Source: Nanobdellota archaeon (GTDB taxonomy: Archaea; Nanobdellota; Nanobdellia; Woesearchaeales; JAHWHD01). From it: 10,928 nt of DNA. Location of the stretch: the NCBI GenBank assembly GCA_034722435.1, contig JAYENX010000040.1, positions 1-10,928 on the forward strand, in the 5' to 3' direction. A program made the position numbers and the translations under genes. The notes beneath the pieces are model-generated. The model saw only the letters and a list, made by a program, of their open reading frames with translations, searched no databases and was not told the DNA's origin. Positions 1,962 through 10,928 of the stretch are shown here, piece after piece; position 1 is the stretch's first letter, and each line of letters opens with the position of its first letter.

Positions 1962-3131
1962 TTAAGATTTGTTTTCCAATGATTCACTAAGTGAATATTT
2001 GTTTAGTATATGATATACTTTAGTAATATTTAAATCATCTTTTGAAGAACAATTATTAAATATTGCATTAACTCCTGAATTCATACCATTAAATTCTGTA
2101 AATATTCCTGCCGATTGCCCATCAAATATTGCATTAACTCCTGAATTCATACCATCAAATTTAGCCATTCCACCCGCAGAATAACCTCTAAATATTGCAT
2201 TAACTCCTGAATTAAGTCCAGTAAACCTAGTCAGTCCACCCGCAGCAGGACCCTCAAATTGAGTATTAACCCCTGAATTAGTTCCAGTAAATTTTGATTG
2301 CAAACCAGCTTCGATATCTCTAAATTGAGCACCAACTCCTGAGTTGGTTCCATTAAATTTTGATTGTGAACCTGCCCTATAACCATTGAATTGAGCATCA
2401 ACACCCGCTTTTTTCCCAATAAATTGTGCTTCATAACCTGATTCTCGTCCTTCAAATTTCGCATTAATTCCTGATCCATTTCCTTCGAATTTAGTACCTA
2501 AACCAGTCCTATGACCTTTGAATTGAACTCCAACACCTGCGTTTTTCCCTATAAATTGAGTTTCATAACCTGCACCAATTCCTTCAAAATTCGCATTAAT
2601 ACCTGCCCCATCTCCTTCAAATTTTATTCTTGAACCTGCAGTTTCACCCAAAAATATAGTATTTAAACCTGAATTATTGCCTTTAAAAATAGCATTAAAA
2701 CCTACAAATTTCCCTTTAAATTTAGCATTAGAACCTGCCTCTTCACCTTCAAATACGGCATTAGAACCTGCCTTTTCACCTTCAAATATAGTATTGGAGC
2801 CTGCGCCAGTTCCTTCAAATAATGCACCATGTCCGGCATGAGTACCCATAAAAGCCTGATCACTATCAATTGTAGTAATAAACGCACCAGCATAATTCCC
2901 TGAAAAATCCTTAACATTATTTCCTTTTGCGTGTAATAAACTTTGTGATAAACCATTAGAAATCTGTCCAGAATCACTTTCCATATTAATATATTGTTTT
3001 AATTCTTCATCCGATATGTCTAATAAATGTGCAGCTTTTTGCAAGAATCTTCTTCCTTTTTCTGAATTTTCATAATAATTATCAACTATATTTTGTAATC
3101 TTTTATCGATATTAATTTTTTCAGTTTTCAT
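1962..3131 (-). CDS. Tandem 11-residue Gly-rich repeat protein, predicted beta-solenoid (389 aa)
   Basis: Long ORF with GAGGTG four nt before the ATG. Residues 96-359 are 24 in-register repeats of G-x-x-[AS]-G-x-x-[ATS]-x-F-x. There is a helical N-terminal region and no signal peptide or TM segment is visible. Confidence 0.9.
   Translation of the reverse strand: MKTEKINIDKRLQNIVDNYYENSEKGRRFLQKAAHLLDISDEELKQYINMESDSGQISNGLSQSLLHAKGNNVKDFSGNYAGAFITTIDSDQAFMGTHAGHGALFEGTGAGSNTIFEGEKAGSNAVFEGEEAGSNAKFKGKFVGFNAIFKGNNSGLNTIFLGETAGSRIKFEGDGAGINANFEGIGAGYETQFIGKNAGVGVQFKGHRTGLGTKFEGNGSGINAKFEGRESGYEAQFIGKKAGVDAQFNGYRAGSQSKFNGTNSGVGAQFRDIEAGLQSKFTGTNSGVNTQFEGPAAGGLTRFTGLNSGVNAIFRGYSAGGMAKFDGMNSGVNAIFDGQSAGIFTEFNGMNSGVNAIFNNCSSKDDLNITKVYHILNKYSLSESLENKS
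2055..2846 (-). repeat. Coding tandem repeat, 24 x 33 bp
   Basis: Repeats run from GTHAGHGALFE to GMNSGVNAIFN. An exact 32-bp duplicate lies at 2058-2089 and 2124-2155, with a third 24-bp copy at 2190-2213 (66-bp period). Confidence 0.95.
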
Positions 3132-3725: not shown

Positions 3726-4103
3726 TTAACTTTTCTTGTAACCAAATTTTTTCTCATAATCTTTATGACTAAGCAAGTCAAGGATTAATGCAATGATTTC
3801 TACTTCGCTTCCTCTGATTGTGTAAATCATTCTCCAAGCACCAGACAGATTTAGTTTCCAGATGTTATTTACATCATACCTATTAATATAGTCTTTTGGA
3901 ATTTTGTTTTTGGCAAGATGGGTTCCAACTTGCGGATTGTCTTTAAGAAAATCTATTTTCGTTCGTATTGAATTGAACAAAATTTGATGATCTGTTCCTG
4001 TTACACCCTTTGCAATTTCTTCCCCAACAAGTTTATTTAACTTTTCAAACTCATCTTTTGCATCTCCTGTAATTTTTACTTTAATTGGTTTACCTTTAAA
4101 CAT
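3726..4103 (-). CDS. RelE/ParE-superfamily toxin-like protein (125 aa)
   Basis: It shows the RelE-fold pattern (I.FLKDNP..G....K...P.......NIWKLNLSGAWRMIYTI....IIALILDLLSHKDYE). It starts 1 nt after the stop of the upstream small DNA-binding gene. Confidence 0.75.
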   Translation of the reverse strand: MFKGKPIKVKITGDAKDEFEKLNKLVGEEIAKGVTGTDHQILFNSIRTKIDFLKDNPQVGTHLAKNKIPKDYINRYDVNNIWKLNLSGAWRMIYTIRGSEVEIIALILDLLSHKDYEKKFGYKKS

Positions 4104-4104
4104 T

Positions 4105-4374
4105 CTATAATTCCACCCCTTCCTGTATAGCTTTATCTAGCTTAGAGCTTGGATTGTATATCCACAAAATACCTTTCCTACCATCAATAATTTTCCCACC
4201 TTCCTCTAAGTACTCCAAAATGACGTTCAATGTTTGATGCATCACTTGTTTTGGTAATTTTGCTTTAAGCTCTTTCCTTGTCAGTAACTTATTTGCTTTT
4301 TTCAACGTTTCCTCTACCATTAACACAGTCTTTAGACTGGGATAATGGATTACCCTCTGGTTTGTCATTTTCAT
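4105..4374 (-). CDS. Winged-HTH protein, probable cognate antitoxin (89 aa)
   Basis: YPSLKTVLMVEETLKK...LTRKELKAKLPKQVMHQTLNVILEYLEEGGKI is wHTH-like. GGTGA precedes the ATG, and the gene is directly upstream of the RelE-like gene. Confidence 0.7.
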   Translation of the reverse strand: MKMTNQRVIHYPSLKTVLMVEETLKKANKLLTRKELKAKLPKQVMHQTLNVILEYLEEGGKIIDGRKGILWIYNPSSKLDKAIQEGVEL

Positions 4375-4716: not shown

Positions 4717-4724
4717 TTTATAAA
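4717..4724 (+). promoter_or_regulatory. TATA box of the GHKL-transglutaminase operon
   Basis: TTTATAAA lies about 38 nt before ATG 4762, with GTGA just upstream of the ATG. Confidence 0.55.
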
Positions 4725-4761
4725 TAACTCTCAAGTTTAGTTACTTAATAGTGACTAAAAT

Positions 4762-7700
4762 ATGAATCTATACGAAGCTTTAAAGAATAGAGTTAAACAG
4801 AAGATTCCTGAATGGATTAGATTGGCAAATGTTGAAGGGCATGCGCAGATGCCGCGAATGATTGTTGTTGATGATGTTGAAGAAGCAGGCAGGTTAAGAC
4901 GTAGATATCCAGACACTTTAGTTGTTCATTCTCCAAAGATTTATGATGAGCATTCACGTTGGGAAGTGGACGATTCATTTAACTCTTCAAATGACCCTTT
5001 AGAAATAAGATTAAGCAATAACGATAAAATAAAAGGAATTCTAGTCGAACCTGAGTCAATGATGTTAGCCATGTCTAATCTTTACCAAGATTGGATGGAA
5101 CCTCCTAAAGATCTTAATCAAGTTGTAGATTCTTTAGAAAATAGTGTTGAGAAAGCTACTGTAAAACGGCAGAAAGGTATGGATGGTCTTCAAAAAGCTG
5201 CAATGAATCTTTCAGGTAAGAAAGATCCTCAAAAGATAAGGAGTTTGATTAATTGGATTTTGAAACATCAATTTGAGTTTCCTGAACATTTTATTAGAGA
5301 AGCAGTGCAGAATGCTGATGGTGCTTATGAAAATAAAAAAGAAAACCAAATTGATGTGTATATTGATACTGCTAATAGACAGGTAAGGATAGAAGATAAA
5401 GGGATGGCTATGACCTCCAAAACTATAGACGACAAATTCTTTAACATGTTTAAGTCAGAGAATGAACATCTTGATTTTGCAGCAGGTAAGTTTGGAATAG
5501 GGGCTGTAAGTTTCTTCGGGTTGGATCACGAAAGTGTTGAAATTGATAGTCTGACTGAAGCGGGAGAAGGTTCACGAGTTGTTGTAAATAGAAAACTTAT
5601 GAAAGGAGATTATCTTCCAAGTAACAGAACCGAACACGGTACAACTATAACGATAAATCTTGCAGAGCAGTCAGATATAGATTTTAATAAAGTTAAAGAA
5701 ATTCTTGAACAGGATTGTTGCTATATTGAAACTCCATTGTTCTTGCATATGGATGGCAATAGCAGAAGATTGAACAGAGAGTTATTTCCAGATGATGCAA
5801 TGACTTTCCAAGAAAATAATGCTCAAGGTTTTTTACAGAAATATGGTAATGGTGGAGAATTGCACCTTCTCGATCATAGGATTAGATTGAAGACATTACC
5901 AATTAAAGGTGCTAATGGCGTTGTAAACTGTGACGGGTTAAGCACCACGTTCTCTAGAGACAGTATCAAGGACGATGCGGTGTTCAAGAATCTGTGGAGT
6001 TTTATCAATCTAAAAAGAAAAGAACTGTATCAAAATGAAGCTGTTGATTATACAGGATTACCTATAGATGAAAGACTAAAAAGGTATAGTCATTTTGTTC
6101 AGGAGTCATTATTTGTTGAAGATGGAAAAGCTAACGAGGAATGGATACGTGATAATTTCTCAACATTAAAAGAAGGTAAAAGATTTCGTAAAGGTTTAAC
6201 ATGGAAGACCCATACAGACTTTAGCTTTCTTAATAAATGGGGTGCATTACCTGATTATGTGTTTAACACATTAAGAGGTTTAGTCAGTGCGCCATATAAA
6301 ATATTAAAAGCTTATATTGAAGAAGATAGGGATATTAAGATAGGGGGAATGGATATTGACCTTGGTTTTTTAGCAACTCCAAAACCTAAAGAGGAAGATA
6401 TTCAAACTATTGTTGATAATGAGTTAATATTAGAGAATCAGCTTGAGAACATTATTACTTTAAGGAACAGTGAGCGTAAGCATAAAATAAAGAATGCTTT
6501 AGACAGTATTACAAATCCATTACCTAGGTGGTATGAGTCTAAGGCTACTTATTTTCTGAATAATGCAGGATGGATTTTAAACCCCATTATAGGACTTGGA
6601 GGAACTATAGCAGGATTTTTATCCGGATTTCCTAAAGTGGGCATGGGAATAGCTGCCACAACTGTTGCGTACAGTATACCTGCGCTTGCGAGTAATGCTA
6701 AGAATATTGCGAAAGGTATGTACAGTGTGGGATATAATATTGTTCAGGCAGTTAGTCATTGGTTAAAAGAAAAAGTTCTTAATGAAGAGATTTCAAAAAG
6801 GTATAGCGAAGTTGCAGCTGGTTTTAAGAAGCCGAAAGAATCTGTAAAGTCGTATAAGAGAGTTAAGCCGGCAGTTGTTAAGAAATTAAATTTAAAACGT
6901 GCGTCATCAACAAGATCATATCCTGAGACTATGGATTGGAAGCACAGTTTAAGGTCTAGCACACGAGAAGATATCGCGAGCGTAATTAATTCGCACGTAG
7001 ATTTTTTAAAACCTGAATATAGTAAGTCTGAGACTTTTACTAATTTGAACGGTCCTACATGGGAATATGATACTGGAGAATTACAAGTAAGTAAAACTAC
7101 GCCATTACCTGAAGAAATTTCAAAAAAAGTAAATGATAAATCAAGTCTGGAACAAAAATTATGGGAAGTATTTAACCATATTAAAAAGTTTGAGTATGAT
7201 GCTGTTACATCAGAAGATGTTGCGAAACATGGCGGTATTTTAGAGGCGATTATTGGAGAGAAAAAAGCTAAATGCGATCAAGCAAATACGCTTGCAGCAC
7301 ATTATCTAAATCAATTAGGTGTTAAAAATATAAGGTATGCAAAGGGTGAATCGCACGGGGTTCCTCATGCCTGGCTAGAGGTAGAAATGAAAGGAGATTG
7401 GTATGTTGCAGATTATACACCAGACAATATAAATCCAGAACTTGAAGAAATGTTAAATTCTGGAACAATAATTCCATCCTGCGATTCAGGCAAGAACATA
7501 TTTGCAGGGTATAATAATGATAATATGAGTCTATGGAGAAAAATTAAGTTAGGCGCTAAAATGGCATATCATGGTGTGAAGAAACATGGCGTCTTAGGTT
7601 TTGGTGAAAAAGTTTTTAGATTGGATAAAAATATAAATCCAAGAAAGTTAGGTTATTTTGAAACTTTGGCTACATTGCCAATGAGAGTAGTAGGATTTCC

Positions 7701-9570
7701 TTTTGCATTATATAATGGAATAAAAGAGTTTGGTGTGGCTGGTTGTGGAAAGAGGATTCTTAAAGAACGTAAAAGAATTGGGTTAACATCACTAGCTGCT
7801 GTTGTTACTATGATGTTAGCAGGGTCTTATTTTGGAGGGGATACTGGAAATCTAACAGCTATGCCTCTTGATGTTAAGCCGACAAAGATTATTCAAACAG
7901 CGAAGGTTACTAAAAAAGTAAAAGAAAACGTATATAACAATAATAATTCAAGTCACACGATTCATCGTTTGCTACCTAAATCTAGGAGGCAAATAGCAAG
8001 TAATAATGCCACTTTCAATCCAGATGTACCAGCAGGATATTTTGCAGTATCACGGAGCGGATTTCTCTGGCAGAGGGATAGTGACAAAGCAGCATGGTCA
8101 GTTTACAAAAAAATTCCCATACCTGAAAATATGCACATAAGTGGACAAATATCTAAAAAATTAAATTTACCCGTATCAAAAGCTGAAACATTAGAAGGGA
8201 AAATTTCGGCATTGACGAAGCATTTCAATGAGTATGAATATGATGTAGTTACATCTGAAGATGTAAAGAAGTATGGTGGTGTTTTAGCGGTTGTTGAGAA
8301 AGAGAAAAAAGGTACTTGTGCAGAGGTAAATACGTTAGCCGCAGTATATGCTCACAAGATGGGAATTAGAAAAATAAGATATGTTAATGGTTTTTTAAAT
8401 GGTGTTGGACATGCTTGGCTTGAGTTTGAACGTGTTGGAAAATGGCACTTGGTTGATTTTACACCAAAAAAGATAAATCCTGAACTTGCAAAGATTATGC
8501 CTAAGCAACCAAGTACGCATATTATGGATCTTGATAATTTTTCTTATAATATGATGCTAAAAGATGAAAATGCATTTGTATATATAAAAATAAAAGAAGG
8601 GGATACAAGATGGAAATTTGCAACCGAAATTAAGAAATGGACAGGTGTTAAAAGAAAAAATATTTTAGATCGAATTCCTTTATCAAAAAAAGGGTATCTT
8701 CGTCAAGGAATTTATGAAGTTGGCAAGCTATTGTCTTCTGATACTAATCAATCACCTCCGTTTATTATTGAAAATGGCGAGCTATGTAAAATAGAGACAT
8801 ACCCCTTAAGACATCGTCTTAATGATAAATTCCAATTTTGTGGGAAGACATGGAGTGATTATTGCCTGAGACCTTTAAGTGATGCTTTAGAAGGATTGGA
8901 AGTAAAGAAAGGTAAAGTTTTTACGGATATTAAAAAAGGAGATACGCGATTTAAACTTGCAAATAAATTGAAAAGGGTTGCAGGTTCAAATTCAACATGG
9001 CAAGATATTGCAGAAAGAATTGAGTTAATACGAGGAGATTTTGCAACAGGTAAATATGAAGTTGGAAAGTATGTTAATGATAGAGTTGTAATTGGAGATA
9101 AGATTAAAAGATATGTCGAACCTGTTAAGGTAGTAGAGAATGTTAAACCAATCGAATCGGAAAGATTGCCTAAGAAAGATGTTGTTAAATTAATGGTAGT
9201 GCCAGAAAAATTAAACTTGCCAGTACAATCAGAATCAGAACTTGTTGTTCCTTATCAGGATAATACTCATTTGTACTTATTAGGTATGGGTCTTCTATGT
9301 GGAGCTGTATACCTCGGAACCAGAAAAAGTGAAAGATTAGATGAACTTAATAGAGATCAAAGGGTTACGCTTTATTCTTTAGCAGAAGCTTTACCAGAGG
9401 TTGATGTTTATTACACGCCTCACGTTTCAAGTGCTTTTGATTTATCTAAGAACAGGGTTAGATTGAATCCTAAGGCAAGTATAATCCCAGAGATTGCAGC
9501 TTTAGGGTATGCCACATTTATGAGAGATGAAGAATTAGCTAAAACAGTGATTAAGAGGTATGGAAAATGA
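4762..9570 (+). CDS. Multidomain membrane protein: Hsp90-like GHKL ATPase + 2 transglutaminase-like (Cys-His-Asp) domains + 2 LysM-like repeats (1602 aa)
   Basis: GHKL boxes: FIRE180AVQN184AD, IED212KGMAM, G242KFGIG, G293TTITI. Hydrophobic segments at aa 604-643, 1006-1024 and 1504-1519. Triads: C838/H869(HAW)/D884(DYTP) and C1186/H1217(HAW)/D1232(DFTP). Confidence 0.9.
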   Translation: MNLYEALKNRVKQKIPEWIRLANVEGHAQMPRMIVVDDVEEAGRLRRRYPDTLVVHSPKIYDEHSRWEVDDSFNSSNDPLEIRLSNNDKIKGILVEPESMMLAMSNLYQDWMEPPKDLNQVVDSLENSVEKATVKRQKGMDGLQKAAMNLSGKKDPQKIRSLINWILKHQFEFPEHFIREAVQNADGAYENKKENQIDVYIDTANRQVRIEDKGMAMTSKTIDDKFFNMFKSENEHLDFAAGKFGIGAVSFFGLDHESVEIDSLTEAGEGSRVVVNRKLMKGDYLPSNRTEHGTTITINLAEQSDIDFNKVKEILEQDCCYIETPLFLHMDGNSRRLNRELFPDDAMTFQENNAQGFLQKYGNGGELHLLDHRIRLKTLPIKGANGVVNCDGLSTTFSRDSIKDDAVFKNLWSFINLKRKELYQNEAVDYTGLPIDERLKRYSHFVQESLFVEDGKANEEWIRDNFSTLKEGKRFRKGLTWKTHTDFSFLNKWGALPDYVFNTLRGLVSAPYKILKAYIEEDRDIKIGGMDIDLGFLATPKPKEEDIQTIVDNELILENQLENIITLRNSERKHKIKNALDSITNPLPRWYESKATYFLNNAGWILNPIIGLGGTIAGFLSGFPKVGMGIAATTVAYSIPALASNAKNIAKGMYSVGYNIVQAVSHWLKEKVLNEEISKRYSEVAAGFKKPKESVKSYKRVKPAVVKKLNLKRASSTRSYPETMDWKHSLRSSTREDIASVINSHVDFLKPEYSKSETFTNLNGPTWEYDTGELQVSKTTPLPEEISKKVNDKSSLEQKLWEVFNHIKKFEYDAVTSEDVAKHGGILEAIIGEKKAKCDQANTLAAHYLNQLGVKNIRYAKGESHGVPHAWLEVEMKGDWYVADYTPDNINPELEEMLNSGTIIPSCDSGKNIFAGYNNDNMSLWRKIKLGAKMAYHGVKKHGVLGFGEKVFRLDKNINPRKLGYFETLATLPMRVVGFPFALYNGIKEFGVAGCGKRILKERKRIGLTSLAAVVTMMLAGSYFGGDTGNLTAMPLDVKPTKIIQTAKVTKKVKENVYNNNNSSHTIHRLLPKSRRQIASNNATFNPDVPAGYFAVSRSGFLWQRDSDKAAWSVYKKIPIPENMHISGQISKKLNLPVSKAETLEGKISALTKHFNEYEYDVVTSEDVKKYGGVLAVVEKEKKGTCAEVNTLAAVYAHKMGIRKIRYVNGFLNGVGHAWLEFERVGKWHLVDFTPKKINPELAKIMPKQPSTHIMDLDNFSYNMMLKDENAFVYIKIKEGDTRWKFATEIKKWTGVKRKNILDRIPLSKKGYLRQGIYEVGKLLSSDTNQSPPFIIENGELCKIETYPLRHRLNDKFQFCGKTWSDYCLRPLSDALEGLEVKKGKVFTDIKKGDTRFKLANKLKRVAGSNSTWQDIAERIELIRGDFATGKYEVGKYVNDRVVIGDKIKRYVEPVKVVENVKPIESERLPKKDVVKLMVVPEKLNLPVQSESELVVPYQDNTHLYLLGMGLLCGAVYLGTRKSERLDELNRDQRVTLYSLAEALPEVDVYYTPHVSSAFDLSKNRVRLNPKASIIPEIAALGYATFMRDEELAKTVIKRYGK
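7153..8499 (+). repeat. Intragenic duplication of the transglutaminase-like domain (about 7153-7455 and 8197-8499)
   Basis: FEYDAVTSEDVAKHGGILEAIIGEKKAKCDQANTLAA aligns with YEYDVVTSEDVKKYGGVLAVVEKEKKGTCAEVNTLAA, and DYTPDNINPEL with DFTPKKINPEL. The catalytic Cys residues are 348 aa apart. Confidence 0.9.
8581..9069 (+). repeat. Two LysM-like about 50-aa repeats (8581-8727 and 8920-9069)
   Basis: YIKIKEGDTRWKFATEIKK...GIYEVGK aligns with FTDIKKGDTRFKLANKLKR...GKYEVGK. Both resemble the LysM Y.VK.GDTLW.IA start. The duplication is clear; the LysM label is tentative. Confidence 0.6.
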
Positions 9571-10886
9571 AACTTGCTTTTGATGTATCGATAGAAGATA
9601 TGGTAAGGAAGAAAGCAGACAGGTATCATAATCCTATAGATTACCTTGATGATTTAATTATTGGAAAAATGTATAGACCCAGAAGAAAGATTGATGTAGA
9701 TGTATATCCCAGTGTGATCAGTGTAAAATCTGAAGGTCCTTCAGACGAATCGTTTATTGGTGAGATACAAGACGGAGATATATTTGCGAAAGCAGAAGTG
9801 CTTCCGCCAATTGCAGAGTATGAAACAGTAATAGCACATACCGGCAACAAAATTCTTATAGTACATGGAAATAGAACTATTGAGGTAGCAGATTTGGAAT
9901 CTGAAAATTCATCTGTAGAAATATTTAGAGAAAGAAACGGTAATGATGAAGCTAAAAGGTTAAAAGAGTTGTATAGTAATTCTGATCTTGATGTTAGGAT
10001 AAATGGTCAAACATTAGAAAAAGCTGTAGGGTTTGAGTTTGATAAAGATGGTGTTAGAGGAGTTATTGCATATGATAAAAGATCGAGAGGTAATGTGCAT
10101 TATTTTAATAATGGAAGATTTGTTGATAAATTAAGTTCAGACATGGGTGGCGTGGATATTTTCCTGCACCAACATGGATTAGCCCCTAACGTTGCAAAGA
10201 CTAAAGTGTTGACAAAAGGAGAGTTTAGGCAAGAGAACGAAAGAATAAATCAAGCGCTTTCCGACGTGTTTGTTGATTATGTTAAACAGTTTAATGGTAG
10301 CGTACAGTCTTATCAAACATTGATGAGGAATGTTCATAATAAATATCCAAGCGCGAGTCTTAATTCTGTGATAAAAGATAAAATTTTGTTTGCAGATCGA
10401 AATGGTGAGTTTAGAAAAGATTATACTCTTGATTATGTGACTGAGCATATTGGAGTTAGACTTTCAGAGAGTGATGATGGTTTATATCAAAGTGTTATGG
10501 GAGAATCAAGGCAAAGTAGACATAAGAAATTAATGGAAGAATTAAGAAGGAAACAGAGAGAGGAAATGTTGAAGAAGAAAAGAGAGATGAAGAAAAAAGA
10601 GATAAAGAGAAGTCAAGTTAAAAGCAGGGTTGTTGAACACGATTATAATCCTTTGCTTCAAGAGGTTGGTACAATATTGAATATTGAAGTTAATGAAGGG
10701 GAAGCGTATAGTTTTAGTGATGGTACTTTGAAAGTTCCAAGAAAAGCATTAGACAATGATGCTCTTAAAATCGCAATGGATGCTGTTCCGCATATTGGAA
10801 GAGATGAAAGTTCTAGATTAGAACTCTATAGTAAAATAGTAAAGTATTCTTCAGGTGTTAATCCAGAGAAAGGTTTTTTCGGGTAA
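9567..10886 (+). CDS. Degenerate Hsp90/GHKL-like paralog lacking ATP-binding motifs, with a charged helix (439 aa)
   Basis: It has an ATGA overlap with the upstream stop. The N-terminus (AFDVSIEDMVRKKADRYHNPIDYLDDLIIG) parallels the upstream KDPQKIRSLINWILKHQFEFPEHFIREAVQN. The middle region (VRINGQ...GVRGVI...VHYFNNGRFV...LAPNVAKTKV) parallels the upstream transducer region. There is an E/K/R-rich helix at aa 318-352. Confidence 0.75.
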   Translation: MKLAFDVSIEDMVRKKADRYHNPIDYLDDLIIGKMYRPRRKIDVDVYPSVISVKSEGPSDESFIGEIQDGDIFAKAEVLPPIAEYETVIAHTGNKILIVHGNRTIEVADLESENSSVEIFRERNGNDEAKRLKELYSNSDLDVRINGQTLEKAVGFEFDKDGVRGVIAYDKRSRGNVHYFNNGRFVDKLSSDMGGVDIFLHQHGLAPNVAKTKVLTKGEFRQENERINQALSDVFVDYVKQFNGSVQSYQTLMRNVHNKYPSASLNSVIKDKILFADRNGEFRKDYTLDYVTEHIGVRLSESDDGLYQSVMGESRQSRHKKLMEELRRKQREEMLKKKREMKKKEIKRSQVKSRVVEHDYNPLLQEVGTILNIEVNEGEAYSFSDGTLKVPRKALDNDALKIAMDAVPHIGRDESSRLELYSKIVKYSSGVNPEKGFFG

Positions 10887-10928
10887 TACATCATCTAATA
10901 ATATAATTCAATAAGTCTATCTAAAAAT

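Follow-up and report, generated by a model that had tools for sequence, protein, structure and literature searches.

What could a pair of overlapping genes accomplish in an archaeon when the first joins an Hsp90-type ATPase to predicted membrane helices and thiol-enzyme domains, and the second resembles the same ATPase with its catalytic residues gone? The question is raised by contig JAYENX010000040.1 of the Nanobdellota archaeon assembly GCA_034722435.1, a stretch of 10,928 nucleotides that was analysed as a whole and is called the window here. The host, a tiny archaeon, has its relatives among the Woesearchaeota (DPANN), in line with the DPANN-like cell guessed from the letters alone. Both genes lie within 4762-10886 on the + strand, to which all coordinates below refer. 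Gene A (P0001, 4762..9570) encodes a membrane protein of 1602 aa, in which an Hsp90-like ATPase and transglutaminase-fold domains were recognized from the ORF, Pfam and NCBIfam scans, and relatives. Gene B (P0002, 9567..10886) encodes 439 aa and is predicted, from the ORF and an AlphaFold (AF2) model with the Hsp90 N+middle fold, to be a soluble pseudo-ATPase paralogue. The ATGA at 9567-9570 is common to the end of gene A and the start of gene B, as noticed in the first-pass annotation. A candidate archaeal TATA-like box, TTTATAAATA (4717..4726), precedes the gene A start by 36 nt, and a Shine-Dalgarno-like site for gene B, AAGAGGT (9553..9559), lies inside the end of gene A; both were read directly from the sequence.

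The Hsp90-type ATPase of A and its degenerate counterpart B

The ATPase part of A is, by its motifs and profile alignments, of the Hsp90 type. It is preceded by an N-terminal extension (residues 1-135, 4762..5166), which has residues P31, H56, and P58 conserved in the family alignments and yielded neither a Pfam match nor an Atlas lead on its fold. The GHKL (Bergerat) ATP-binding domain follows at approximately residues 140-330 (5179..5751), as located by PDB profile and hhalign, and a middle-domain-like region occupies approximately residues 331-470 (5752..6171) and carries the catalytic loop T395-T-F-S-R399-D at nucleotides 5944-5961. All four GHKL boxes expected from the first reading were found, namely motif I (E180/N184/D186-G187), motif II (D212-x-G214, with the second Gly replaced by Ala216), motif III (G242-K-F-G245-I-G247), and motif IV (G293-T294). 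Among 20 relatives, E180, N184, D212, G214, G242, K243, G245, G247, G293, T294, and R399 are invariant, as are D186-G187 and the loop residues T395, S398, and D400; position 216 is not invariant.

Alignment of A to true HtpG by hhalign reached a probability of 99.5% (E 2.9e-23 over A 159-416) and paired TTFSRD (395-400) with the HtpG catalytic loop LNISRE, and the A profile matched the Grp94/Hsp90 N domain in the PDB at E 1.5e-4. NCBIfam HtpG gave A 38.2 bits, below its 371-bit cut-off, and the sole Pfam ATPase match was HATPase_c at 16.8 bits, under the 26.4-bit cut-off. A histidine-kinase identity for this ATPase was rejected, since Pfam found no HisKA-type DHp/His-box or receiver domain in A, and Hsp90 proteins, not kinases, match it best. 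The Bergerat N domain, motifs I-IV, and the SR[ED] loop of the middle domain are features that A has in common with HtpG, TRAP1, Grp94, and cytosolic Hsp90. Unlike these proteins, the pair occurs in an archaeon, and neither A nor B has a Pfam HSP90 (PF00183) match in the middle and C-terminal region; PF00183 has no match anywhere in this 94.5%-complete genome. Hsp90 is generally described as missing from archaea.

Gene B presents the same scaffold in a different state. Its pseudo-N domain (residues 1-150, 9567..10016) keeps a conserved N-terminal strand/helix (F5, S8, D11, K15) and is devoid of motifs I-III; the middle domain (residues 151-312, 10017..10502) has G183 and H203 invariant and R184 near-invariant; a long helix assigned by DSSP on the model (residues 315-352, 10509..10622) leads to a tail domain (residues 361-430, 10647..10856) with the same order of secondary structure as the A tail, although the sequence homology of the two tails is not significant. 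At the position of the catalytic loop, B reads AKTK here versus T.TKSR across its family. Sequence searches with B returned no family match. Its AF2 model (pLDDT 91.5) shows the Hsp90 N+middle fold and matches TRAP1 (Foldseek E 2.8e-11; VIA Z 13.9, 308 residues aligned, rmsd 6.1). Hsp90 N+M is the best match of the predicted fold, in VIA by a narrow margin: Hsp90 proteins scored up to Z 13.9 over residues 1-322 and MORC2/3 and GyrB Z 11.5-12.2 over 1-280, these rows lying within ~2 Z units of each other.

The ATP motifs I-III (E..N, DxGxG, GxxGxG) are without conservation across 31 B-family members, and in the hhalign register E180 of A faces a variable B position and N184 faces K/R. The direct comparison of B with A by hhalign is colinear with A 168-431 and borderline (E 2.6e-4, probability 42%). 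The in silico evidence, from the predicted fold and from family conservation, supports B as a dead Hsp90-like paralogue of the A ATPase part, as first proposed, on a relationship that is borderline by sequence.

Membrane regions, enzyme domains, and topology of A

Hydropathy of A gave the three hydrophobic regions noted at first sight, with five candidate segments (605-623, 626-644, a weak 969-987, 1006-1024, and 1502-1520). Region 1 (residues 597-645, 6550..6696) contains two candidate transmembrane helices with Kyte-Doolittle peaks of 1.48 and 1.34. By hydropathy and charge counts, region 2 (residues 966-1026, 7657..7839) includes a KRILKERKR patch besides the weak segment 969-987 and the clear transmembrane helix 1006-1024, and hydropathy assigns region 3 (residues 1502-1520, 9265..9321) one transmembrane helix, followed by RKSER. 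These membrane parts have low confidence in the AF2 model.

Two transglutaminase-fold domains are arranged between the hydrophobic regions, and the Cys-His-Asp assignment made from the sequence was recovered by Pfam Transglut_core (PF01841), which matched two stretches of A at E 7.7e-14 and 52.3 bits against a 23-bit cut-off. Domain 1 (residues 728-898, 6943..7455) carries C838 (7273), H869 (7366), and D884 (7411), and domain 2 (residues 1068-1246, 7963..8499; best Pfam stretch 1139-1232) carries C1186 (8317), H1217 (8410), and D1232 (8455). The two domains share 39% identity (E 4e-36), their AF2 models have pLDDT 83-97 and 85-92, respectively, and all 22 sequences compared keep the triad unchanged, whether the module is placed on A or on B. 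The Foldseek neighbours of domain 1 include TgpA, a bacterial TGase, and LapG (4fgq, 4u65); the periplasmic domain of TgpA (6g49) is near at a probability of 1.0, yet with an E value of 0.015.

Downstream of domain 2, a 53-residue repeat was identified by internal BLAST, with copy 1 (GDT...G.YEVGK) at residues 1273-1325 (8578..8736; pLDDT about 72-77) and copy 2 at 1386-1439 (8917..9078; low model confidence) sharing 40% identity (E 1e-8). The repeat suspected earlier is therefore real, but its reading as LysM, which is by pattern only, found no support: Pfam LysM (PF01476) has no match to whole A at E 1 or to the isolated repeats at E 10, no Pfam family is detectable in them, and the model confidence of the region is too low for judging the LysM beta-alpha-alpha-beta fold. 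The pseudomurein endoisopeptidases PeiW and PeiP recall A in that their thiol catalytic domain has the transglutaminase fold and is accompanied by short tandem repeats, possibly for binding wall polymer; unlike A, they are soluble phage enzymes without ATPase or membrane module, and they are absent from the fold and sequence search results for A. The chain ends in a small tail domain (residues 1529-1602, 9346..9567; helix, three strands, two helices; pLDDT 76-88) with N1569 and Y1583 conserved.

Both transglutaminase domains of A may be extracellular, with conflicting topology evidence for domain 1. Four clear helices by hydropathy and the loop at residues 669-735 after region 1, which holds 19 K/R in 67 residues, place domain 1 in the cytoplasm on that reading, and therefore at least one enzyme copy may be non-external. 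This placement would suit a membrane-proximal quality-control or degradation machine, in which the Hsp90-like pair holds or remodels clients and a cytoplasm-facing transglutaminase-fold peptidase cuts them. Hsp90 proteins are chaperones, and an analogous membrane quality-control/degradation model was put forward by Zhang and Aravind for MoxR-vWA-YebA/TgpA-like operons, whose TGL domain they assigned to a loop on the cytoplasmic side (PMC3495828). However, the positive-inside argument is weakened because the genome is lysine-rich overall (K+R make up 14.8% of P0001), and the periplasmic domain of TgpA was found by experiment to be external and transglutaminase-active (PMC3507681). Furthermore, in the forms with the enzyme fused to B (see below), the enzyme is flanked by two transmembrane helices between two obligatorily cytoplasmic domains and is therefore outside; the enzyme domains of P0053 likewise sit between single transmembrane helices with necessarily cytoplasmic outer flanks. 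We consider such a degradation machine quite improbable.

TgpA (PA2873 of Pseudomonas aeruginosa) is a close comparison, being like A a polytopic membrane protein with a transglutaminase-fold Cys-His-Asp domain and a functional tie to a chaperone-like ATPase (PMC3495828, PMC3507681). The difference lies in the ATPase, which in A is of GHKL/Hsp90 type and fused to the membrane protein, and in the TgpA/MoxR-vWA operons is a separate AAA+ MoxR. No MoxR or vWA/DUF58 gene was found in the window or the joining contig, and P0001 has no Pfam TgpA_N (DUF3488) or DUF4129 match.

Linkage of A and B, module exchange, and the predicted complex

In all nine independent loci with readable adjoining DNA, an A-type gene lies directly upstream of B, and the junctions are an overlap or a 1-2 nt gap. 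The distribution of the enzyme between the two chains differs. In three relatives, L011, L013, and L015, the TM-transglutaminase-TM module is found on B, between the middle domain and the tail, and A is without enzyme domains and retains four transmembrane helices. Comparison of these sequences in silico thus shows the transglutaminase module to migrate between A and B.

The complex model of A and B reached an ipSAE of 0.84 (runs 0.83-0.85), compared with 0.63 for the best control and 0.00-0.01 for unrelated partners. At least 88% of contacts agree between runs, and the pLDDT of the partner is at least 86. Of 80 solved complexes, 58 attained this mark, as did 2 of 110 mismatched pairs; the A-B model differs from the calibration of the tool in using its own alignments and a riding ATP. 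In the model, the N-terminal strand/helix of B swaps onto the N domain of A, with B 1-22 packing on A 227-232/275-282 and A 139-174 on B 69-83/102-104, and the tails meet through A 1531-1602 and B 400-438. N-terminal strand exchange together with C-terminal contact is also the arrangement of the closed Hsp90 dimer; the modelled pair differs from that homodimer in appearing as a heterodimer, of whose protomers one is live and the other dead. Because Hsp90 dimers are solved structures, the passing score may be a memory of Hsp90 likeness, and the model supports binding of A and B with the qualification that it possibly reflects such memory in part.

The lack of any ATP motif in B, and the generic HATPase_c hit as the only, sub-threshold Pfam ATPase match of A, could also be expected if the two proteins did not pair functionally, B being a decaying tandem duplicate or the A ATPase a histidine-kinase-type signalling domain. 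The B ORF is intact, however, and its invariant residues persist across 31 sequences, even where identity falls to about 14-35%; B stays beside A in all readable loci, the whole module has been exchanged with A, and the features expected of a kinase are those missing above. We give this explanation very little credence. Unlinked homologues, the lack of a predicted complex, and an already characterised family had been named at the outset as grounds against the proposal, and none of the three was found. The dead paralogue, the linkage, and the predicted heterodimer stand from it, alongside the module exchange seen in relatives; the LysM identity of the repeats does not.

A possible inside-out machine and its setting

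We slightly favour the view that A and B constitute a membrane-integrated, asymmetric Hsp90-like ATPase clamp controlling an outer thiol enzyme. The two proteins would be co-translated and form the halves of the clamp, with the sole working ATP site on A. The membrane module of A, ~1000 residues between the middle domain and the tail, would display the transglutaminase-fold domains, and B would be the soluble paralogue with the N+middle fold, no ATP motifs, a long helix, and an A-like tail. Pairing would most likely take place via the tails and, in the ATP state, also by N-terminal strand exchange as between Hsp90 protomers. ATP binding and hydrolysis at the A site would set the cytoplasmic domains in motion; transmitted by the membrane helices, the movement would switch the outer thiol enzyme or set its position, an inside-out control. 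The enzyme may be a peptidase, an isopeptidase, or a cross-linker, with substrates on the envelope or on the surface of a partner cell. The domain content, the dead B site, the strict linkage, the module migration, and the controlled complex prediction were obtained in silico; from there we infer the signalling direction, the enzyme chemistry, the substrate, and hence the function of the pair.

A similar logic is assumed elsewhere. By the current view of LapD-LapG and FtsEX-type systems, a nucleotide state in the cytoplasm is passed on through the membrane to control an external hydrolase, as proposed for A-B; LapG is moreover a transglutaminase-like cysteine protease among the structural neighbours of the A enzyme. 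The resemblance is an analogy of logic only, with unrelated components: LapD-LapG and FtsEX rely on a c-di-GMP receptor and an ABC ATPase, respectively, and in A-B a single chain or two paralogues carry both ATPase and enzyme.

The family is rare, with about 40 clusters in 1.84 billion proteins, the count also given for B, and overall only about 20-40 in billions of proteins; of the 401 genomes sampled from the phylum, 3 had it, and these belong to one order. Such a patchy distribution, together with gene neighbourhoods that vary between loci, would be in keeping with an accessory conflict or host-interaction machine, serving either defence (a sensor ATPase with a membrane/surface effector) or the attack or anchoring of a host wall, and not own-envelope housekeeping. 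ParE-type toxin-antitoxin pairs adjoin the module in L001, in L002-L005, and, by a weak match (E 0.003), in the window itself; small regulators and a MazE/AbrB-like gene lie upstream of the pair in the window, and the repeats after domain 2 could bind wall polymer. Toxin-antitoxin proximity may nevertheless be due to chance, because such pairs are common in small archaeal genomes, and the reading of the repeats as LysM lacks support. In PADLOC-DB 2.0, no family matched P0001, P0002, or two relatives, and two other relatives gave only generic GHKL noise to TmtA (E 5.6e-4 to 1.5e-3). No relatives were found on viral contigs, no nuclease or other typical effector was present, and the window contig joins a chromosomal contig with an rRNA operon and redox genes. 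Hence we hold a conflict or host-interaction role to be unlikely. With Pfam HSP90, TgpA, and PADLOC all unmatched, the first impression that no named family fits this architecture is upheld, and the literature search found no paper on the gene pair; A-B is rare, conserved, outside named families, and apparently undescribed.

Few ATP-driven clamps have been studied as much as Hsp90, and asymmetric ATP hydrolysis in Hsp90 and TRAP1 has long been debated. All Hsp90 forms known to us are soluble homodimers, and none of them resembles A in carrying a ~1000-residue membrane module with enzyme domains before a small unrelated tail. Tentatively, A-B could represent a new class of membrane-embedded Hsp90-like machine, an obligate live/dead heterodimer in which one ATP site drives a thiol enzyme on the outer face for remodelling or cutting the DPANN cell's own surface or that of its host. 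It would add to Hsp90 a membrane-integrated form, a naturally asymmetric live/dead form, and a form wired to an enzyme across the membrane; its asymmetry bears on the hydrolysis debate, and the placement of the enzyme module on A in some loci and on B in others offers a ready-made natural experiment on coupling. If true, transmission of work across a membrane would be shown for an Hsp90-type ATPase for the first time, and archaea would be found to employ a chaperone family that is considered missing from them. DPANN archaea live attached to other cells, with surface proteins almost all of unknown function, and A-B, all of whose functions are predicted, is a candidate surface machine for their biology that hints at ATP-driven control of a cell-surface enzyme.

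The Hsp90-like ATPase and its probable dead partner

Gene A (P0001; ORF at 4762-9570, 1602 aa) is present as one copy in the genome. Pfam assigned two stretches of it to Transglut_core (E 7.7e-14) and returned HATPase_c only below the cut-off, and NCBIfam returned HtpG at E 6e-10, far below the cut-off of that model. A profile built from eight relatives recovered the N domains of Grp94, Hsp90 and HtpG among PDB sequences (E 1.5e-4) with the Hsp90-specific landmarks aligned, and a 20-sequence profile matched true HtpG over residues 159-416 (probability 99.5%, E 2.9e-23), placing TTFSRD of A opposite the Hsp90 catalytic loop LNISRE. All members of the A family have E180, N184, D212, G214, G242, K243, G245, G247, G293, T294, and R399, and the single departure in P0001 is Ala216, found where motif II has its second glycine. 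The N-terminal 135 residues gave no Pfam match and no Atlas lead.

Beyond residue 480, five candidate segments fall into three hydrophobic regions. The two transglutaminase-fold domains (728-898 and 1068-1246) share 39% identity (E 4e-36), and the Cys-His-Asp triad is intact in both. Across 22 sequences, the triad is invariant. Among solved structures, the closest in fold are a bacterial transglutaminase, the TgpA periplasmic domain, TglA, a Cytophaga cysteine protease, and LapG, with weak E-values owing to the long query. A 53-residue repeat occurs in two copies (E 1e-8), and an 85-residue tail forms the C-terminal end. The repeats had been described as LysM-like in the first-pass annotation, an identity for which Pfam gave no match, including a search with the repeats alone at E 10.

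Gene B (P0002; ORF at 9567-10886, 439 aa) shares the ATGA at 9567-9570 with the end of A, and AAGAGGT lies 7 nt before its start. It matched no sequence family in Pfam or NCBIfam and, as a profile, no PDB sequence; a profile search of 1.84 billion representatives recovered only 40 proteins. The AlphaFold2 model of B, based on a 31-sequence alignment, is confident (pLDDT 91.5), and Foldseek ranked TRAP1 and other Hsp90 proteins on top (E 2.8e-11). The N and middle domains are covered by the VIA alignment (Z 13.9, 308 residues, rmsd 6.1 Å), and GyrB and MORC come next after Hsp90 at Z of about 12.

The homology of A and B is seen only with deeper alignments and through the fold. BLASTP of A against B was empty, as was hhalign when the alignments held just 4 and 8 sequences (probability 0.2%). 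The stand-alone-B profile aligned colinearly with A 168-431 (E 2.6e-4) at a probability of just 42%, and B was not significant against the true HtpG profile. A much stronger hhalign value (E 1e-35, alignments A3 vs A5) was set aside as evidence for N-domain homology, because the transglutaminase and tail parts shared by the fused forms inflate it. Homology of the two tails is likewise not claimed (hhalign E 0.2), the order of secondary-structure elements being all that they share.

None of the E..N, DxGxG, and GxxGxG motifs was found across the B family. In the hhalign register, the catalytic Glu of A (E180) falls on a variable position in B, and the Mg-binding Asn (N184) is replaced by Lys or Arg. 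The GT of motif IV is kept in most B proteins and is NS in P0002, while the TTFSRD loop corresponds to T.TKSR in the B family and AKTK in P0002. The earlier proposal that B is a dead ATPase partner is thus supported by fold and conservation, and is only borderline by sequence alone.

Pairing, module exchange and the predicted complex

An A-type gene directly precedes a B-type gene in the window, in the loci L001, L002-L005, L011, L013, L014, L015, and L016, and on the contig of P0003, the protein most similar to B. The genes overlap or are separated by 1-2 nt. Wherever the adjoining DNA could be read, the two genes were paired, and no conserved neighbors other than A and B were found around the pair. 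The same order is seen in two more distant pairs. One is a variant on contig C7 of genome G081 (L020, 3-6612), where an ORF cut off by the contig end and no shorter than 1713 aa carries two transglutaminase-like domains and no ATPase part in the sequence available. It overlaps a B-like gene of 489 aa that matches the B profile at E 1.4e-29. The other is a divergent pair in metagenome assemblies (L021, 870-6525; L022, 963-6618): a 1375-aa protein with a GHKL ATPase and Transglut_core, whose ATPase matches family A at a hhalign probability of 99.9%, is followed after 1 nt by the start of a 508-aa B-like gene.

In three loci (L011, L013, and L015), the product of gene A is 633-833 aa long and has four transmembrane helices besides the ATPase and the tail, without the transglutaminase. 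Gene B of these loci is 715-782 aa long and comprises the N and middle domains, one transmembrane helix, the transglutaminase domain, one helix, and the tail. The enzyme module has therefore shifted from one partner to the other and takes an equivalent position in each, between middle domain and tail. This comparison is strong evidence that A and B work as one unit.

We modeled A 100-480, A 1516-1602, ATP, and B together. The complex reached an ipSAE of 0.84 (0.83-0.85 in three runs), with contact agreement of at least 88% among the runs and partner pLDDT of at least 86, whereas controls with unrelated partners scored 0.00-0.01. In the calibration of the tool, 58 of 80 solved complexes reached the mark, as did 2 of 110 mismatched pairs, and our run departs from that calibration in its author-made alignments and the riding ATP. 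A control in which the N and middle part of A was replaced scored 0.63, indicating that the tail-to-tail contact scores by itself. The predicted interfaces set the strand and helix at the N terminus of B against the N domain of A, and vice versa, and also involve both catalytic loops and both tails. The pass may reflect the likeness of the complex to closed Hsp90 dimers, which are solved structures.

Membrane topology

If paired with the soluble B, the tail of A must be cytoplasmic. A tail inside the cell and the single helix at 1502-1520 would together place transglutaminase domain 2 and the repeats outside. For domain 1, the four clear helices and the K/R-rich loop after region 1 would suggest an inside location. 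Three observations argue for an outside location instead. The weak segment at 969-987 followed by KRILKERKR reproduces the post-enzyme helix and basic patch of single-domain relatives; in the related protein P0053, single helices bracket two enzyme domains; and the fused-B forms place the enzyme on the membrane side opposite the ATPase-like domains. In the AlphaFold model of A 590-1602, pLDDT falls under 50 along the membrane and linker stretches, too low to settle the topology.

Host, surroundings and relation to known systems

The window spans an entire contig (10,928 bases). The genome behind it (1.3 Mb, 94.5% complete) carries an archaeal rRNA operon (SSU 1395 bits, LSU 1022 bits). Window positions 10764-10928 overlap positions 1-165 of contig C56, which carries this operon, and the last 40 codons of B recur identically at the start of C56, so the locus is chromosomal. 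Peroxiredoxin, DUF2202, and rubrerythrin genes lie on C56, with the rRNA operon 47 kb further on. Further Transglut_core matches at C3:35427-35747, C2:1291-1578, C9:1334-1588, and C56:40005-40160 bring the transglutaminase-like genes to five in this very small genome. Of seven related loci in the collection of species-representative genomes, most belong to MAGs labeled Candidatus Woesearchaeota, which bears out the DPANN host guessed previously. About 3 kb from P0003 (65% identity to B; Logan SRR11241199), three genes with Sigma70_r2/r3/r4 Pfam matches adjoin ELP3 and RsmB-like genes, which is odd for an archaeal contig. A bacterial origin of the window, suggested by these neighbors, is rejected on the archaeal rRNA and the Woesearchaeota relatives. 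A sigma-70 promoter and terminator scan of the window, not applicable to an archaeon, gave chance-level results, and the Rfam search of the window found no RNA families.

Of 401 genomes sampled from the phylum, 3 matched the B profile, all in one order. This tally counts the window's own genome and G360, a genome flagged unpublished that enters no other result. No relatives were found on viral contigs, and no PADLOC defense family matched. In three neighborhoods, the module is accompanied by toxin-antitoxin pairs of the ParE type, and those flanking it in L001 (12487-12968) and L002 (12009-12478) share 34% identity. In the window, two overlapping small genes at 3726-4374 (-) encode a weakly ParE-like 125-aa product (E 0.003) and an 89-aa possible winged-helix antitoxin. 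The patchy distribution and the ParE-type neighbors keep an accessory or conflict role in play. Elsewhere in the window, a 389-aa ORF at 1962-3131 (-) consists almost entirely of an 11-residue G..AG....F. repeat and has no Pfam match. Small putative regulators cluster at 3-1777: one gene is MarR-like (3-713, -), another is MazE/AbrB-like (785-1009, -; E 1e-4), and a third (1115-1777, +) encodes a lysine-rich protein of 220 aa whose winged-helix matches are faint.

The cytoplasmic parts of A and B would work like Hsp90, yet neither a PF00183 match nor an HtpG equivalog score places them in that family. The membrane enzyme of A is similar to TgpA, the external domain of which is active as a transglutaminase in vitro (PMC3507681), and the tie of a chaperone-like ATPase to a membrane transglutaminase-fold protein is reminiscent of the MoxR-vWA-TGL operons (PMC3495828). 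Both systems differ from A/B in ATPase class, fusion, and the dead paralogue. Our literature search for the architecture found no paper, within a coverage that is incomplete and leaves absence unproven. Collectively, the A-B pair is real, conserved, and apparently undescribed, and its novelty is a new arrangement of known folds. The mechanism and biological role of the pair are inferred. In silico evidence gives good support to the structural reading, in which a live and a dead Hsp90-like protein are paired, with a transglutaminase-fold enzyme on the opposite side of the membrane.
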